Source of the DNA: Promethearchaeota archaeon
Lineage (GTDB): Archaea; Asgardarchaeota; Lokiarchaeia; Sigyniarchaeales; SOKP01
Length of the DNA: 11,103 nucleotides
Direction of reading: 5' to 3'
NCBI GenBank assembly: GCA_008080735.1
Contig: SHMW01000108.1
Location: 1 to 11,103 of the forward strand
Shown: piece after piece, positions 1-8,170 of the stretch
How positions within the stretch are numbered: the stretch's first letter is position 1
Layout: every line of letters starts with the position of its first letter
Program-made: the position numbers and the translations under genes
Notes under the pieces: generated by a model
Databases searched by the model: none
Told to the model about the DNA's origin: nothing
What the model saw: only the letters and a program-made list of their open reading frames with translations

Positions 1-942
1 ACTGTGTCTCGCCTACAAGAATTGGAACTTAATGGCACTAAAACGCTCAATATTAATACTGACGCTCACGATCTTTACTATTCGAATTCTCAAAAAAAAA
101 TACTCATCGGCAAGGAAACATGTAATGGACTGGGCTCGGGAAATAATCCAGAAATCGGAGAGGAGGCTGCTGAAGAGGATGTGGAACGAATCAGAAATTC
201 ATTAGACTCCGATATTGTATTTATTACGTGCGGACTCGGTGGGGGAACTGGCACAGGAGCAGCTCCTATAGTCGCGAGAGAAGCCAAAAGGAATGATTCT
301 ATGGTGGTCTCATTCTGTACGATTCCCTTCAAATCTGAAGGAGCGGAGCGGAGAGCAAGAGCAAGACTAGGATTGTCTAATCTTGCAAAATATTCCGATA
401 CCATTATCCCATTACCTAATAACAATTTAATCAATATTATCCCTAAAGTCCCAGTTCTTACTGGCTTTAAGATTATGGACGAGATTCTCATACGAAGCAT
501 TAAAGAAGTCGTTCATTTGATCAATAGTTGCGGTCTGATAAATATAGATTTCGCGGATGTGAAACGAGTATTTGAAAAAACAGGTAAATATCCTTCTGGC
601 CTGATAGGTATTACCGAATCACTGGGCAAAAAATCTGATTTAATCACTAAATCGAAATTAGCGATCCATAACCCGCTTCTTGAACTTGATACGCAATTAG
701 TTGATAAATGCCTATTGTCAGTCACCGGAAGTCATCGATTAACTTTAGATAAAATGGACGATATCGTCTCCACTATTTCTAATGAGATTCCCTCAGAAGC
801 TCAACTGAAAGTAGGAACCGCTATGAATCCCCAAATCGGTTCTAAAATACGAATAATGGTACTGGGAAGAGGTCCCATTTCTCCTTATGTGAAGTATGCC
901 CTTGATAACGATGATCAAGCATTCAATGATTTGATGAGCTAA
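1..942 (+). CDS. ftsZ: Cell division protein FtsZ (divergent paralogue), 5'-truncated by the window edge
   Basis: Tubulin/FtsZ signature GLGGGTGTG (GGGTGTG at 238-258), NTDAHDL, GLGSGNNPEIGEEAA, PFKSEG and T7 loop INIDFADV (538-561). The frame is open from base 1 and the N-terminal GxGGxGxN loop is absent, so the true start lies upstream and GTG at 4 is probably internal. Confidence 0.93.
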   Translation, partial: TVSRLQELELNGTKTLNINTDAHDLYYSNSQKKILIGKETCNGLGSGNNPEIGEEAAEEDVERIRNSLDSDIVFITCGLGGGTGTGAAPIVAREAKRNDSMVVSFCTIPFKSEGAERRARARLGLSNLAKYSDTIIPLPNNNLINIIPKVPVLTGFKIMDEILIRSIKEVVHLINSCGLINIDFADVKRVFEKTGKYPSGLIGITESLGKKSDLITKSKLAIHNPLLELDTQLVDKCLLSVTGSHRLTLDKMDDIVSTISNEIPSEAQLKVGTAMNPQIGSKIRIMVLGRGPISPYVKYALDNDDQAFNDLMS

Positions 943-1537: not shown

Positions 1538-4495
1538 ATGCTTTCTGAAAATGAAATTGACCTTCTTAAGGATTGCCAAACAGATAAGGAATTAAAAACA
1601 GTTTTCAAGACTATTGCTTCTAAAAATCCAGATACGTATTTCCCTACCAAAGAATTAATGGATTTGGGCTATAGGAGAGAACAATGCAGTAGCTGTGGAA
1701 CTTATTTTTGGACTACTCATGAAGACCGACGAGTTTGTGGTGACCCGAGCTGCTCTGGAGGATTTAATGTGGTTCTTGACAATCCTACACCACAGAAATT
1801 GTCATATATTGAGGTATGGAAAAAAATCATTGAAGTTTTAGAACCTCGGGGTTATGTACCAATAAAACGGTATCCTTGTGTTGCCCGATGGAATCCAACT
1901 TCGGAATTCACCATCGCATCTATATCTGCGTTCCAACCATATGTCATTACTGGTGAAGAAGAACCTCCCGCGAAAAAGCTGATAATTCCCCAATTTTGTT
2001 TACGCTTTAATGATATAGAGAATGTAGGAATAACAGGCTCACATAATACGGGCTTCGTCATGATTGGACAGCACACTTTTGTCTCTCCGGAAGAGTGGGA
2101 TCAAGGAGAATTATTCATGGATATGCATGACTTTATTACCATTGGTGTAGGGCTCTCAAAGGATGAAATCACGGTCCATGAAGATTCGTGGGCAGGCGGA
2201 GGGTCATTTGGATGTAGTCTGGAGTTTTTTAGCAGGGGAGTCGAATTATTTAACCAAGTCTATACAATGTTTGAGCAGACACCAAAAGGTCCACGAGAAC
2301 TAAAACTGAAAGTATTAGATATGGGACTCGGTCAAGAACGAGTCGCGTGGTTTTCTCAAGGAACTCCGAATATGTATGAAGCCACATTTCCATATGTGCT
2401 TTCTAAGCTTAGAAAAAAAACCAAAATTGAATTAGACCATAGTTTATATAATCGATTTTCTAAATTTTCCGCTTATTTGAACGCAGATGAGGTAGAAGAT
2501 ATGGACGCTGCATGGCGGAGAGTAGCTGAGGAATTAAATATTAATGTTGAAAAATTGCGAAATACAATATTACCGATGACTGGACTTTATTCGATTGCGG
2601 AACACGCCAGAAGTCTTTTATTTGCGATTCACGATGGAAAATTACCCTCAAATGTCGGAGGGGGATACAATCTGCGTGTTATTTTCCGGAGGGCAATTGG
2701 ATTCATTGATAAATTTGGATGGAACATTGAAATTCCAGATGTATGTAAGTGGCACGCGGAAGAATTAAAGGGTCTCTTTCCTGAAGTCTCAGAGAATCTA
2801 GATGAGATAAAAGAAATTCTTGATGTAGAGAAGGAGAAATATTATGCCACTAAGAAGAAAGCGAACAAGATTCTAAAAAAGGAACTTAACAAAGGGCAAA
2901 TTGACACGGAAACTTTAATAGAGATGTATGATTCGAACGGAATCAGCCCAGATATGGTAAAAGAAGCGGCAAAAAAATACAATGTACAAGTAAAAATCCC
3001 AGATAACTTTTATAATCTTGTAATTCAAAGGCATGAACAATCCGAACAAGTTCACGCTACTAGAAAAGAGATCGAGCTGGAATTAGACGATATTCCCGAG
3101 ACAGAATCTCTGTATTATTATGATTATACCAAAACAGAAAATAAAGCGAAAGTTCTCAAAATTGCAGATCATAAGGTAATATTAGACAAATCTGTTGCTT
3201 ACCCGACCGCTGGCGGTCAACTTCACGATATAGGAACCATTAATGGACAGATTTTCAAGGATGTGTTTAAACAAGGCAATCATGTTATCCATGTACTTAA
3301 TGAGGATCCAGAATTTTCCGAGGGTGAAGAGGTAATAGTCAAGGTTGATGAAGATTGGAGGAGACAACTCTCCCAACACCATACGGCGACCCATATCGTA
3401 AATGCCGCAGCTCGAGAAATATTAGGGAGTCATGTAAACCAAGCGGGGGCTAAAAAAACACTTGAATCGTCCCATTTGGATATAACACATTATGAACAAC
3501 TCACTAACGAGCAGCTAAGCAGAATTGAAGAGAGAGCAAACGAAATCGTGAATGAGTCGATTGATCTAAATCTAAAATTTATGCCACGTGCCGAGGCAGA
3601 GCATGAATATGGCATGGAAATTTATCAAGGAGGGGCAGTTCCGGGGAGCAAAATCAGAATTGTTGAAGTTCCCGGGGTAGATGTAGAAGCTTGTGGGGGC
3701 ACTCATCTTAATAATACCGCTGAGACAGGCCAGATAAATATAATCAAGTCTCAGAAAATTCAAGATGGTGTCGTAAGACTTATCTATACCGCAGGAAAAG
3801 CATCAAAACGCTTAGAGAAGAGAAATCAAGAGATACTATATAAATTAGGATCTTTCTTAGATGTAGAAGAAGGCAAAATCGTTGGAAGAGTGAAAGAACT
3901 ATTTGATAAATGGAAAAATATCAATAAAGCACTCTCGACGGGAAATGTAAATGAAGAAGATTTGGATTTGAACTCGTCCGAAATATTCCGAGGAGACATT
4001 TTAACTGAACTTACTGAATTTCTAAACCTTCCAAAAGACAAAATATTTCCAAAAGTAAAACAATTCTACGATGAATGGGAAGAAGGGAAAGATAAATTAG
4101 ATAAAATGCAAAAACTCTTGAGCAATGATTTCATTAAAAAATTACTTTCAGATGCCGAAACCTATAAAGGGTTCAAAATAGTGGTTGAAGCTCTTGAAAA
4201 TCTCTCGCAAGAAGATTTGAAAAATGTAAATCAATCAATTCTTAAGGAAGATGATACCGCGATAACCATTCTACTCAATAAAACCCAGAGTGGATATATT
4301 GTTATGGGGATGCTAGGACCGAAAGCTTCAGAAGACTTAGATCTTCATTTAGGAAACTTTATTCGTAAGATAATTTCTCATTTCGATGGGAAAGGAGGTG
4401 GATCATCAGAATTTTTCCAAGGATTTATCGCTACGGAAGAATTGGAGCCAGACGAAATTACAGACTATATTTTAACCAAATTTAAGGAAGAATAG
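1538..4495 (+). CDS. alaS: Alanine--tRNA ligase, archaeal type
   Basis: N-terminal CSSCGTYFWT...CGDPSC Zn motif, YPCVARW, ASISAFQP, motif 2 CLRFNDIENVG, WAGGG, motif 3 DMGLGQER, G3:U70-recognition-type SNVGGGYNLR and MYDSNG, editing domain GGQLHD / HTATH / EACGGTH, and C-Ala GKGGG. Confidence 0.98.
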   Translation: MLSENEIDLLKDCQTDKELKTVFKTIASKNPDTYFPTKELMDLGYRREQCSSCGTYFWTTHEDRRVCGDPSCSGGFNVVLDNPTPQKLSYIEVWKKIIEVLEPRGYVPIKRYPCVARWNPTSEFTIASISAFQPYVITGEEEPPAKKLIIPQFCLRFNDIENVGITGSHNTGFVMIGQHTFVSPEEWDQGELFMDMHDFITIGVGLSKDEITVHEDSWAGGGSFGCSLEFFSRGVELFNQVYTMFEQTPKGPRELKLKVLDMGLGQERVAWFSQGTPNMYEATFPYVLSKLRKKTKIELDHSLYNRFSKFSAYLNADEVEDMDAAWRRVAEELNINVEKLRNTILPMTGLYSIAEHARSLLFAIHDGKLPSNVGGGYNLRVIFRRAIGFIDKFGWNIEIPDVCKWHAEELKGLFPEVSENLDEIKEILDVEKEKYYATKKKANKILKKELNKGQIDTETLIEMYDSNGISPDMVKEAAKKYNVQVKIPDNFYNLVIQRHEQSEQVHATRKEIELELDDIPETESLYYYDYTKTENKAKVLKIADHKVILDKSVAYPTAGGQLHDIGTINGQIFKDVFKQGNHVIHVLNEDPEFSEGEEVIVKVDEDWRRQLSQHHTATHIVNAAAREILGSHVNQAGAKKTLESSHLDITHYEQLTNEQLSRIEERANEIVNESIDLNLKFMPRAEAEHEYGMEIYQGGAVPGSKIRIVEVPGVDVEACGGTHLNNTAETGQINIIKSQKIQDGVVRLIYTAGKASKRLEKRNQEILYKLGSFLDVEEGKIVGRVKELFDKWKNINKALSTGNVNEEDLDLNSSEIFRGDILTELTEFLNLPKDKIFPKVKQFYDEWEEGKDKLDKMQKLLSNDFIKKLLSDAETYKGFKIVVEALENLSQEDLKNVNQSILKEDDTAITILLNKTQSGYIVMGMLGPKASEDLDLHLGNFIRKIISHFDGKGGGSSEFFQGFIATEELEPDEITDYILTKFKEE
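3833..4099 (+). repeat. Protein-level tandem duplication (55-codon period) of the helical linker preceding C-Ala in AlaRS
   Basis: ILYKLGSFLDVEEGKIVGRVKELFDKW (from 3833) vs ILTELTEFLNLPKDKIFPKVKQFYDEW (from 3998): 11/27 identical, ungapped, counted by hand. Confidence 0.75.
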
Positions 4496-4719: not shown

Positions 4720-5532
4720 ATGGAAATAATACATCTCTCGGATTTACATTATGGCTCTGCTGAATTTAAAGAAAAATGCTTTGAAAATATCATCGAATAT
4801 ATCGCAGGGTATAAATCTAAAATCGATTTGGTGATAATCACAGGTGATATCACTGACCATGGACGTTATGAAGAGTATGAGGGAATAAAACGATATATAG
4901 ACCGAATTCCCACGGAAAAATTAATAGTTCCAGGAAATCACGATATCTCTAAAAATGGAGCTGGAAAAATCAATTATGAAACATTTTTCGGCTCAACGAC
5001 TACAACTAACATCTCGAAAAAAAGTAATTGCCTTGCACTGGGAATATGCAGTGCGAAAGATGGAATTGCAATATCAGAAATAGGAGATCAACAATTAAGA
5101 TATATAGCAGAACAATATTTGAATAATTCTGAAAAACGAAAAATATTGGCTCTTCATCATCACCTCATTGCTGTTCCTTATAGCTCTAAAAGCTTAAATA
5201 TTCCAATAGATGCCGGAGAAGTACTGGAAATTCTTAGAATGTTTGAAATCGAGCTAGTATTGATGGGACATCGACATGTACCCCACGTATGGACATTAAA
5301 TGGGACTACATTTCTTTATTGTGGTACTAGTACAAGTGGAAAAGTCAGAGCTAATGAACCCCCATGTTTTAATCATATATATATGGATGATTTTGAATTG
5401 GAAGTTGATATAGTGGACTCTTATTCTTTGAACAAACAACCTTTACTGAGAAGAACTCCGAAGGATGTTAATTTCATTAAATACCGAAAAGCAAGAATAG
5501 AATACCTTTTACATGCAAAAATCTTAGGATAA
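4720..5532 (+). CDS. Calcineurin-like metallophosphoesterase (Icc/CpdA-like phosphodiesterase family)
   Basis: All five motifs in order: SDLH, GDITD, GNHD, ALHHH, GHRH. Confidence 0.92.
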   Translation: MEIIHLSDLHYGSAEFKEKCFENIIEYIAGYKSKIDLVIITGDITDHGRYEEYEGIKRYIDRIPTEKLIVPGNHDISKNGAGKINYETFFGSTTTTNISKKSNCLALGICSAKDGIAISEIGDQQLRYIAEQYLNNSEKRKILALHHHLIAVPYSSKSLNIPIDAGEVLEILRMFEIELVLMGHRHVPHVWTLNGTTFLYCGTSTSGKVRANEPPCFNHIYMDDFELEVDIVDSYSLNKQPLLRRTPKDVNFIKYRKARIEYLLHAKILG

Positions 5533-5643: not shown

Positions 5644-6057
5644 ATGCCGAGACCAGAAACTCCACTACTAACTGTGGATGCTGTGATATTATTTGATTCT
5701 GATAATCTTGTATTAATCAAGCGGAAAAATCCTCCTTTCAAAGGACAATATGCATTACCGGGTGGATTTGTAGATGTTGGCGAAACTGTTGAGGTCGCAT
5801 GCATCAGAGAGGCAAAAGAGGAAACAAACATAAATGTTAAAATTACCGAATTAATCGGCGTATTTTCTAAACCAGACCGCGACCCAAGAGGTCATACGGT
5901 TAGTATTGCTTTTTTATGTGAACCTAAATCTAATAGAGAAGATCCAAAAGCGCAAGATGATGCCGCTGAATTAGAGCTAGTTCCTATTCAAAAAATTAGG
6001 AAAATGAAACTTGCGTTTGATCACAAACAAATAATTAAGAAAGCGGGACTCATTTGA
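5644..6057 (+). CDS. Nudix hydrolase, ADP-ribose pyrophosphatase-like
   Basis: Nudix box GGFVDVGETVEVACIREAKEETN, plus LTVDAVI, PDRDPRGHTVS and LAFDH motifs typical of archaeal ADP-ribose pyrophosphatase-like Nudix proteins. Confidence 0.93.
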   Translation: MPRPETPLLTVDAVILFDSDNLVLIKRKNPPFKGQYALPGGFVDVGETVEVACIREAKEETNINVKITELIGVFSKPDRDPRGHTVSIAFLCEPKSNREDPKAQDDAAELELVPIQKIRKMKLAFDHKQIIKKAGLI

Positions 6058-6079: not shown

Positions 6080-6880
6080 TTAGGATTTTGCATTATTGAA
6101 ATATTTTTTATAACACGAACAACATAATATCCCAAGATTTAGTGAGTGAGTCCATCCTGGTCCCAGATGGGTATATTTGTCTTTTAGTTCAAAAAACCTC
6201 TCTCTTAATAACATAACCTCTTCCTTCTGGCTAAAATAAAAATCTTTCAAATTGTCAATATGGTTCTTCTCCTTACAAAGTGGACATATCTGATAATTTT
6301 TCAAAAATTCAATAAAATCTTTTTCCTCTTTAGGAAATAAAAGGGATAGATCAGAATATTCTATTGAATTCTGTCCATTATATACTTCTATTAAGAATTT
6401 AAAGAAATCCTTTTTCAATATATAATTTATTTCTTCATGAGCGCTAATATTATAGTGGCCATTTATTCTATACGCTTCAAACAATCGTTTTATTTTTTCA
6501 TTAGCAACTTCTCTATGAGTGGCATCAGATTGAAAACTTAGAATTATCAAAGGGATATTTTTTATCTCATTTCTAAATTGAGTTATCCATCTTCTCGCTT
6601 CTCGATAAGAATTCATACTTGATTTGTCAATATAAATTAATCCTCCCCTCGCTCCATGACAAAATGAGGATAGCATGAATTCAAATCGCTTTTTCTGGTT
6701 TAAATGCCAAAGAATAAAAAGATAAGAATCACCGAAATTAGTCATACATTCGATTGAGTTGATAGTAATACCTATATGGGAGAAATCCTCGCCACTAAAT
6801 TCGGAATTATCGAAAAAAGGAATGATCTCTGGATTAGATACTCCCCCCATTATAATTTTAAATTTGTAAGATCGTGGCAT
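6080..6880 (-). CDS. Degenerate Rab/Ras-like small GTPase domain fused to a C-terminal Cys-rich (putative Zn-binding) domain
   Basis: Rab-like scaffold YKFKIIMGG...IGITI...ILWHLNQKKRFEFMLSSFCHGARGGLIYID...SYREARRWI...IPLIILSFQSD...YNISAH; C-terminal CPLC (6275-6286) and CCSC (6113-6124). ATG at 6880 is preferred over TTG at 6916. Confidence 0.8.
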   Translation of the reverse strand: MPRSYKFKIIMGGVSNPEIIPFFDNSEFSGEDFSHIGITINSIECMTNFGDSYLFILWHLNQKKRFEFMLSSFCHGARGGLIYIDKSSMNSYREARRWITQFRNEIKNIPLIILSFQSDATHREVANEKIKRLFEAYRINGHYNISAHEEINYILKKDFFKFLIEVYNGQNSIEYSDLSLLFPKEEKDFIEFLKNYQICPLCKEKNHIDNLKDFYFSQKEEVMLLRERFFELKDKYTHLGPGWTHSLNLGILCCSCYKKYFNNAKS

Positions 6881-6994
6881 TTCATTCAACCCTTTTGTTA
6901 TAAAAAACAATTTCAATGATTCATATAAAAAGATGGCTTAAAAAATGTTATGTTATTGTGGTATTCATATCATTTCTTCTATTTGATTTTCAGT

Positions 6995-7375
6995 CTATTT
7001 AATTTCATAGATATTTCCAAATGGGTCTTGGAGAAATAAATAATATCCCTCACTATTTTCTCTTGGGACTTGAATTACTTTAATATCCAATTCTCGTCCT
7101 TTGCTAACAATCTCGTTCCGATTCTCTACTTCCAAACATACATGAGTGAAGGTATCAGTTCTGTAGCTATTACCATCCGTAATAAATACTTCCGCCGCCA
7201 CATCCCCATGTTCATATCGTATGATTCGTTGATCCTTATTCTCTTCAAAAAATTTGTTCATTAATTTCGCGGGAACAGTAAAATCACGTGTTTTTTGAAA
7301 TCCAAGCAATTTTAGAAAAAAGGTATCACTATCTTCTTCAGAAATCGAAGCCACAGCAAAATGGTTTAATTTCAT
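6995..7375 (-). CDS. VOC (glyoxalase/bleomycin resistance/dioxygenase) family protein
   Basis: LNHFAV...FFLKLLGF, HVCLEV and FLQDPFGNIYEI; putative metal ligands H5, E62, H78, E124. Confidence 0.9.
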   Translation of the reverse strand: MKLNHFAVASISEEDSDTFFLKLLGFQKTRDFTVPAKLMNKFFEENKDQRIIRYEHGDVAAEVFITDGNSYRTDTFTHVCLEVENRNEIVSKGRELDIKVIQVPRENSEGYYLFLQDPFGNIYEIK

Positions 7376-7471: not shown

Positions 7472-8170
7472 ATGGAACTAAAAAATTATCAAAAACTACG
7501 AATCATTGCGGGTATTTTGTTGATCGCTTCTGCCATAACACATCTAGGGCAATTAATAGTTGTTGGATTTGAATGGCATGATCTTGCTGCTGCAATAATC
7601 GGAGGGCTCTATGGTGTCTTAGGGATTTTATTGTTATTATATAAAGAAAATAGACCCTTGACATTCATAGGAATAATTTATCCCTTTATCGGTGGGACTT
7701 TAGGTTTGGTGAGATTAATCTCGATTGAAATTGCTCAAAACGGAACCATCAATTGGTTTATCGTATGGCACCTTATTGTTGATATCATTGTTGTTCCCTC
7801 ATTATTCCTCTATTATATATCGTTCACAGGAATGAATGGTCAGAATCAGCTTTCATTTTTGACAATTGTTATGTTTTTCATTACTGCGTTGATTCATATT
7901 TTACAGATATATTATGGGATAAATCTTGAAAATATTGGCACAACCATCTTTGGTTTCATTTACATAGGAATAGCGGTATTAGTATGGACTAAAGAAGAGA
8001 GCAAAAGAGTCCATATCCTGGCGATTGATATCCCAATTATCGGGGGAATTATCGGTTTGATATTGTTCTTTTTCACATATAATCCGTTTCTCATTTTCTT
8101 TCTCATCGTGGATATCCTTATAGTTTATCTCAGAATTCATATATACAAAACGTATTATATGAAAAAATAG
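7472..8170 (+). CDS. Integral membrane protein of unknown function, about 8 TM helices made of two homologous 4-TM units
   Basis: Highly hydrophobic. Repeated motifs AITHLGQ/ALIHILQ, GGLY/GFIY, PFIGGTLG/PIIGGIIG and HLIVDII/FLIVDIL. Confidence 0.85.
   Translation: MELKNYQKLRIIAGILLIASAITHLGQLIVVGFEWHDLAAAIIGGLYGVLGILLLLYKENRPLTFIGIIYPFIGGTLGLVRLISIEIAQNGTINWFIVWHLIVDIIVVPSLFLYYISFTGMNGQNQLSFLTIVMFFITALIHILQIYYGINLENIGTTIFGFIYIGIAVLVWTKEESKRVHILAIDIPIIGGIIGLILFFFTYNPFLIFFLIVDILIVYLRIHIYKTYYMKK

Follow-up and report, generated by a model that had tools for sequence, protein, structure and literature searches.

A probable nucleotide-free Rab-like pseudo-GTPase with a C-terminal cysteine-rich module in a lineage of Promethearchaeia

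Organization of the locus

The gene described here lies in an 11,103 nt stretch of DNA from a Promethearchaeota archaeon (contig SHMW01000108.1; hereafter the window), which has a G+C content of about 30-38%. The window opens at its edge with a 5′-truncated gene of the FtsZ/tubulin family (1-942, plus strand; Pfam Tubulin, E 2.9e-36, and FtsZ_C, E 2.5e-13), which is followed by a PNPOx-like gene and then by a gene encoding a 985 aa alanyl-tRNA synthetase (1538-4495). Pfam matches identify a metallophosphoesterase gene (4720..5532, plus strand) and a NUDIX hydrolase gene (5644..6057, plus strand), the latter convergent with the pseudo-GTPase gene that is our subject (6080..6880, minus strand), and a VOC/glyoxalase-family gene (6995..7375, minus strand) lies upstream of it and is co-directional; all three are also neighbours of this gene in related genomes, as described below. 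At 7472-8170 (plus strand) there is a 232 aa ORF with no Pfam match; some relatives have a conserved counterpart next to their own glyoxalase gene (69% identical in L033).

The pseudo-GTPase gene encodes 266 aa and ends with a TAA stop codon (6080-6082). The minus-strand ORF spans 6080-6916, and we assign the start to the ATG at 6880 rather than to the upstream TTG at 6916, since the orthologues begin at the aligned methionine and a purine-rich, Shine-Dalgarno-like element that probably serves in initiation (AAGGG, 6890..6894, minus strand; GGG at 6890-6892) is positioned 10-14 nt upstream of the ATG. A GGG or GGAGG run similarly precedes the start in most orthologues. The preliminary description of this locus covered 6340-6880, which corresponds to residues 1-180 of the 266 aa protein.

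The codon aligned to Met1 is ATT, ATA, CTG or ACG in a number of orthologues (L032, L039, L063, the second copy in L038, L042, L048, L049, L064 and L066). It directly follows an in-frame stop codon in L032, L039 and the second L038 copy, with one codon (ATC) between the two in L063, and none of these four has an ATG, GTG or TTG start upstream of it. Several in-frame codons precede it in L042, L048, L049, L064 and L066, none of them ATG, GTG or TTG save for a distant TTG in L066. As far as the alignment of these Promethearchaeia genes can indicate, near-cognate start codons may be used in them.

The N-terminal domain and its predicted fold

Residues 1-170 (6371..6880, minus strand) correspond to a predicted Rab/Ras-like G domain, the fold built of a six-stranded sheet and five helices. 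The protein matches the Pfam Ras profile (PF00071) with 37.2 bits (cut-off 21.6; E 2.9e-9) over residues 19-153, in an alignment that does not take in the profile's P-loop segment (positions 1-14); the Roc profile is a weaker match, and a search of NCBIfam with the 266 aa protein returned no match. When the PDB sequences were searched using phmmer, 247 small-GTPase chains were listed. Rab11 headed them (E 2.1e-10), and behind it came Ran/Gsp1, Rab35, Ypt31/32 and the Asgard Thor-Rab 7EZB (E 2.3e-7). Judged by these searches, the sequence resemblance to a G domain is well above chance.

An AlphaFold2 model computed from a family alignment of 55 sequences (pLDDT 89.5, pTM 0.77) was used for structural comparison, a model from only seven sequences (pLDDT 60) having been discarded. 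With the 55-sequence model Foldseek recovered only small GTPases from the PDB, with a probability of 1.00 to Rabs, and the leading matches, Rab11, Rab8, Rab27 and Rab1, have E-values of about 2e-10 and TM-scores of about 0.7-0.75 on the target (~0.73 for Rabs). An exhaustive VIA-align search, in which the matches all span model residues 1-173 only, i.e. the G domain, gave Rab23 (Z 17.3, rmsd 2.8 over 161 residues), Ypt32 (Z 17.1) and Ran (Z 16.5). The top structural matches include nucleotide-free complexes with GEFs (Rab8:Rabin8 4lhx, SH3BP5-Rab11 6ixv, TRAPPII-Ypt32 7u05 and Sec4-Sec2 2eqb) and nucleotide-free Ran (2n1b), which would fit an open and empty pocket in the model, although their scores are tied with those of nucleotide-bound entries and this is a hint only.

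Profile and structure searches thus both recover the N-terminal Rab/Ras G domain that was proposed in the preliminary description from the order and spacing of short segments, and the pairings made there with RabF-like segments reappear in the HMMER alignment to Rab11 (IGITI with IGVEF, RFEFML with RYRAIT, FCHGA with YYRGA and IYID with LVYD, with LFILW as the β3 strand ending in W). The segments equivalent to RabF1-F5 align to Rab11 by position, with few identities, and the hydrophobic triad that reads F/W/Y in Rabs reads I40/W58/C74 here. Eukaryotic Rabs (Rab11, Rab8, Rab1 and Rab23; PF00071) are the best matches in both sequence and fold, having the same order and spacing of strands and helices, and the window protein shares with them the invariant β3 tryptophan and has RabF-like segments at equivalent positions. 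Unlike Rabs it has neither the G1, G3, G4 and G5 motifs nor a C-terminal prenylation motif, and has an additional module, about 85 aa long, with a CCxC sequence 10-13 residues from the end that is paired with a conserved CPxC. The Asgard Thor-Rab (7EZB, 7EZD and 7EZE), which is matched in fold as well as in sequence, is likewise an archaeal Rab-like G domain; its crystals contained GDP or GTP-gamma-S and its C-terminus is short and free of cysteines, and the solved Asgard Rab-like proteins bind nucleotide and have no C-terminal cysteines (Tran et al. 2024, PMC10933270), whereas the window protein has a Cys-rich tail and no nucleotide motifs.

Loss of the nucleotide-binding motifs

All four motifs are degenerate, and the family alignment bears out each of the readings first made from the sequence. 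At the position of the G1/P-loop the protein has GGVSNPEII (residues 12-20; 6821..6847, minus strand), in which E18, I19 and I20 stand at the G-K-[ST] positions of P-loop-intact relatives. The G3 motif, WD(L)K in relatives, reads WHLNQ (residues 58-62; 6695..6709, minus strand), and G4, TKxD in relatives, reads FQSD (residues 116-119; 6524..6535, minus strand). The G5 region is ISAH (residues 145-148; 6437..6448, minus strand), a segment that is unconstrained in the group of orthologues sharing these losses, which we refer to as the dead clade. A regular-expression search of the whole protein found no [AG]xxxxGK[ST], [NT]KxD or DxxG anywhere. Some members of the dead clade keep a lysine at the old P-loop position (e.g. 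GGSDPEKLP in L027), which is a chance retention. G12-G13 and D85/S87 are invariant throughout the clade.

The C-terminal Cys-rich module

At the C-terminus every full-length relative has a block of about 85 aa with the pattern FPxEEKxF...CPxCxxxNH...GIPCCxC[YF]K, which in the window protein occupies residues 183-262 (6095..6334, minus strand). The AlphaFold2 model of this module consists of a helix, a β knuckle bearing the CPxC, two helices, a loop and a last helix that begins with the CCxC, an arrangement that, in the model, is treble-clef-like. The CPLC knuckle (6275-6286, minus strand), with C199 and C202 and the nearby N206-H207, follows the FPxEEKxF helix and is itself followed by the two helices, and CCSC (6113-6124, minus strand; C253, C254 and C256) marks the start of the last helix. 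In an alignment of 36 module sequences (numbered separately) C24, C27, G75, C78, C79 and C81 are invariant, giving C-P-x-C and G-I/L-P/L-C-C-x-C with a nearly invariant histidine; across 36-55 sequences C199, C202, C254 (and C253) and C256 do not vary and H207 hardly does, which gives four invariant cysteines, in two pairs, as putative ligands. From this pattern the module probably binds zinc. We considered CCSC as a prenylation motif and rejected it: it is located at residues 253-256 of 266, is followed by YKKYFNNAKS, and co-varies with the invariant CPxC.

The module has no Pfam match, a search of the ESM Atlas gave no usable match, and a profile search of the PDB returned nothing significant, the best match being the Rad50 zinc hook (PDB 1L8D; E 0.096). 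The hook resembles the module in its helix-CPxC-helix arrangement, but the module, unlike the hook, has a second invariant element, CCxC, which makes an intramolecular metal site as likely as a hook-type intermolecular one.

A profile search of 301 genomes of the phylum found the module in 62 of the 68 that belong to the window's family and gave no match in the 233 that come from 29 other families. One contig to which the submitter gave the label Candidatus Odinarchaeota, L087, has a module-only match (42% identity over residues 173-261). The module follows Ras-like domains in the family described here, dead and P-loop-intact members alike, and in longer forms (P0023, P0036, P0042 and P0045), and precedes them in P0054 and P0070. 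Nearly every genome of the family, also in a genus without the GTPase fusion, further encodes a protein of about 150-180 aa in which the module is the only domain, and proteins of about 430-500 aa contain it twice. Both forms occur in the source genome, on its contigs C19 and C41: a 164 aa module-only protein (L010:1255-1749:+) and a 459 aa protein with tandem modules, whose N-terminal 280 aa or so have no annotation (L006:358-1737:+).

Relatives, genomic position and phylogeny

Through a word-indexed search we obtained six close relatives (42-89% identity), all about 265 aa long, all with the same dead motifs and all from metagenome-assembled genomes of Lokiarchaeota/Promethearchaeia. An exhaustive search gave 608 matches, and among the best 150 of these are several dozen full-length relatives of about 255-275 aa. 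About 14 orthologues with intact ORFs (36-89% identity) share the dead motifs, and relatives at or below about 35% identity carry intact GxxxxGK[ST], WD and TKxD motifs. In most of these latter, 'live' members the G3 glycine and the catalytic glutamine are missing (the sequence being WDLKxxxRF), and for this reason we call them P-loop-intact and do not regard them as proven switches; they also have no clear G2 threonine. The P-loop-intact members (e.g. L035, L038, L041 and P0011-P0013) have the same two-domain architecture and genomic slot as the window protein, with 30-37% full-length identity, and differ in keeping the GxxxxGK[ST], WD and TKxD that the window clade lacks.

The source genome (4.1 Mb, 93% complete) encodes about 25 small-GTPase paralogues, and only the window protein joins a G domain to the Cys-rich module. 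A search of 60 related genomes gave a full-length match in 30 of the 36 that belong to the same family. When the window's neighbours were located with tblastn, the order glyoxalase/VOC - X - NUDIX (- metallophosphoesterase), where X is the GTPase-module gene, was found around dead X in L027-L034 (three genera) and around P-loop-intact X in L035-L049 (several other genera). Since the same gene order surrounds both, the dead and live genes are positional orthologues. The neighbours conserved around X have the appearance of unrelated housekeeping genes, and the synteny therefore yields no clue to function. The GTPase-module gene is single-copy in the source genome and tandemly duplicated in some P-loop-intact lineages (L038, L045, L060-L062 and L065).

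In a maximum-likelihood tree of 72 rows the window protein falls in a clade of 13-15 rows, all dead, with an SH-aLRT support of 98-99, and this clade is nested within P-loop-intact rows. The proposed test of whether homologues share the degeneracy of G1, G3 and G4 thus comes out in favour of a pseudo-GTPase, this monophyletic set of orthologues having the same losses, that of G5 included. The nearest outgroups have lost G4 alone (L037, L040 and L042) or G4 together with G1 (P0008 and L046), which suggests a loss order of G4, then G1, then G3 and G5, with a backbone support of 84-91 SH-aLRT only. Across the 72-row tree the all-lost state requires at least four origins.

A second large branch of the family (L051-L054, P0018, P0020, P0025, P0027, P0031 and others) has F, E or D after the P-loop lysine, as in GSYNSGKFD, and has lost NKxD; its pairwise dN/dS values are higher, at 0.35-0.8, at dS values of 0.04-0.2 only. 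We also note P0029, a 235 aa database protein in which an FtsH extracellular domain is joined to the C-terminal half of this family, and which probably arose by chimeric assembly or as an artefact of gene calling.

Selection and the location of constraint

Purifying selection acts on both domains of the dead-clade proteins. By the NG86 method, which is crude at about 30% GC and with dS above 1 in several pairs, dN/dS for L030/L031 is 0.13 over the whole gene (dS 0.17) and 0.11 over both the G domain and the module; for L029/L030 it is 0.14 (G domain 0.17), for L056/L027 0.17 (G domain 0.21) and for L028/L029 0.26 (G domain 0.28). These pairs are made up of other members of the dead clade, with the window's own terminal branch and its relatives P0002 (89%) and P0003 (69%) lying outside them. 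Values for P-loop-intact pairs by the same method include 0.11 (L035/L036) and 0.12 (L039/L041), and the overall ranges are 0.11-0.28 for dead pairs and 0.10-0.19 for P-loop-intact relatives. The dead set, for which a test of purifying selection had been proposed, therefore has dN/dS values as low as those of relatives with an intact P-loop. Relative to the flanking NUDIX and glyoxalase proteins, the mean divergence of X is 1.52 in dead pairs and 1.42 in live ones. From the similar dN/dS and the similar relative rate, we conclude that selection preserves the degenerate G domain just as strongly as it does the live ones.

These values bear on whether the gene is simply a small-GTPase paralogue that no longer has a function and is on its way to becoming a pseudogene. 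The disappearance of every catalytic motif would fit such decay, as would a rate of change about 1.5 times that of the neighbouring proteins, but the relative rate of the live forms is also 1.4, G-domain dN/dS (0.11-0.28) equals that of live relatives, and ORFs are intact in about 14 divergent orthologues. Many positions moreover do not vary, and there are conserved residues that the clade alone has acquired (P21, F28, D32, F33, L54 and F162), all of which make decay very improbable.

Conservation was also compared by structural element, as mean pairwise BLOSUM score over 12 dead and 18 live sequences. The dead clade scores lower than the live forms at the P-loop (2.2 vs 3.5), G4 (1.5 vs 2.3), β6 (0.9 vs 2.3) and G5 (0.3 vs 2.0), and higher at α1/switch I, residues 21-37 (3.1 vs 1.75), and β3 (4.9 vs 4.0), with smaller gains at β2 (3.4 vs 3.0) and α5 (2.7 vs 2.2). 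Constraint has thus been lost at the nucleotide-contact elements and gained at α1/switch I and β3. The best conserved part of the dead clade is the segment comprising α1/switch I, β2 and β3 (residues 21-60; 6701..6820, minus strand), which includes P21, F22, D32, F33, IGI, EC45, DSYLFI and W58, and the residues whose invariance is specific to the clade are P21, F28, D32, F33, L54 (lysine in live forms), H59 and F162. The earlier proposal that the switch/effector surface is kept is supported by this shift of constraint towards α1/switch I and β2-β3. A protein whose nucleotide pocket had ceased to matter, and whose classical effector face had turned into a fixed binding surface, would be expected to show such a pattern.

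A remodelled pocket that still binds GTP/GDP, another nucleotide or a ligand through unrecognized residues, as in a class ii/iii-type pseudoGTPase or an atypical GTPase switch, would predict the opposite, since conservation collapses at all four of the old nucleotide-contact elements. The continued invariance of G12-G13 and D85/S87 is in its favour, and the P-loop-intact relatives, themselves atypical at the G3 glycine, the catalytic glutamine and the G2 threonine, raise the prospect of a family that uses unusual chemistry. G1, G3, G4 and G5 are nevertheless lost jointly, with the acidic or hydrophobic E18, I19 and I20 at the phosphate-binding Gly-Lys-Ser/Thr site, and we regard a non-canonical binder of this kind as unlikely.

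Another alternative is that the Cys-rich module is the functional unit and the G-like domain a mere folded carrier, providing stability or solubility and having no binding surface of its own. The module does stand alone in nearly every genome of the family and doubled in proteins of about 430-500 aa, and it is conserved at least as well as the G domain. A passive carrier would not, however, be expected to have a dN/dS as low as that of the module, nor to gain clade-specific conservation at the surface-exposed α1/switch I and interswitch strands, and we think it decidedly improbable that the domain is only a carrier.

Discussion

PseudoGTPases are known mainly from eukaryotes, and their origins have been inferred from distant comparisons. 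Our literature search found no paper treating pseudoGTPases together with archaeal small GTPases in substance, and an Asgard Arf preprint makes no mention of pseudoGTPases or zinc; a paper in which the words pseudoGTPase and archaea both occur brings in archaea only where it deals with kinases. The reading that we favour, with a probability of roughly 0.8, is that the window protein is a functional, nucleotide-free pseudoGTPase of a class i-like type, derived from a P-loop-intact Rab-like ancestor and now a fixed adaptor. In sequence and model it has what would be expected of a member of class i, which is defined by the absence of both nucleotide binding and hydrolysis (PMC12490416), namely a G fold, degenerate G motifs and evolutionary conservation. 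The class i pseudoGTPases of eukaryotes (CENP-M, p190RhoGAP pG1/pG2 and the AAGAB psGD) are nucleotide-free interaction modules (PMC12490416, PMC5593906, PMC10211241), and the window protein is like them in its conserved, here predicted, G-domain fold with the G motifs lost. It is unlike them in being an independent archaeal loss, with live positional orthologues still extant and a lineage-specific Cys-rich module fused to the domain.

The ancestor that we envisage would have been Rab-like, with its P-loop intact and, at the C-terminus, a Cys-rich module that probably bound zinc, and its gene would have stood between the glyoxalase-family and NUDIX genes. In one lineage of this Promethearchaeia (Lokiarchaeia-type) family G4, then G1, and then G3 and G5 would have been lost, while the G fold and the zinc module were retained. 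The resulting protein would no longer cycle and would present its switch-I/interswitch face constitutively to a partner, with the Cys-rich module as a second contact that might act in dimerisation, in docking to another module-bearing protein or in localisation. The roles suggested in the preliminary description, those of a scaffold, decoy or heterodimer partner, may likewise apply. The whole looks like a molecular switch that has evolved into a fixed adaptor. In a bolder version of this fixed-adaptor reading the module would dock on the switch/interswitch face or in the vacated pocket, or would share a metal site with the family-wide C45/C74, and in any of these arrangements it would take over from the nucleotide the task of fixing the conformation.

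We lean, by a modest degree, towards regarding this as the first documented archaeal pseudoGTPase lineage beside live positional orthologues, in a family with a previously undescribed zinc module in which the conversion has happened at least four times. The presence of dead and P-loop-intact forms in the same slot of Asgard sister genera makes ancestral reconstruction, swap experiments and direct biochemical comparison possible. The analysis also defines an unannotated Cys-rich module that belongs, in this sample, to one family of Promethearchaeia and is almost always attached to Ras-like domains, and which bears on how Asgard small GTPases are targeted without prenylation.
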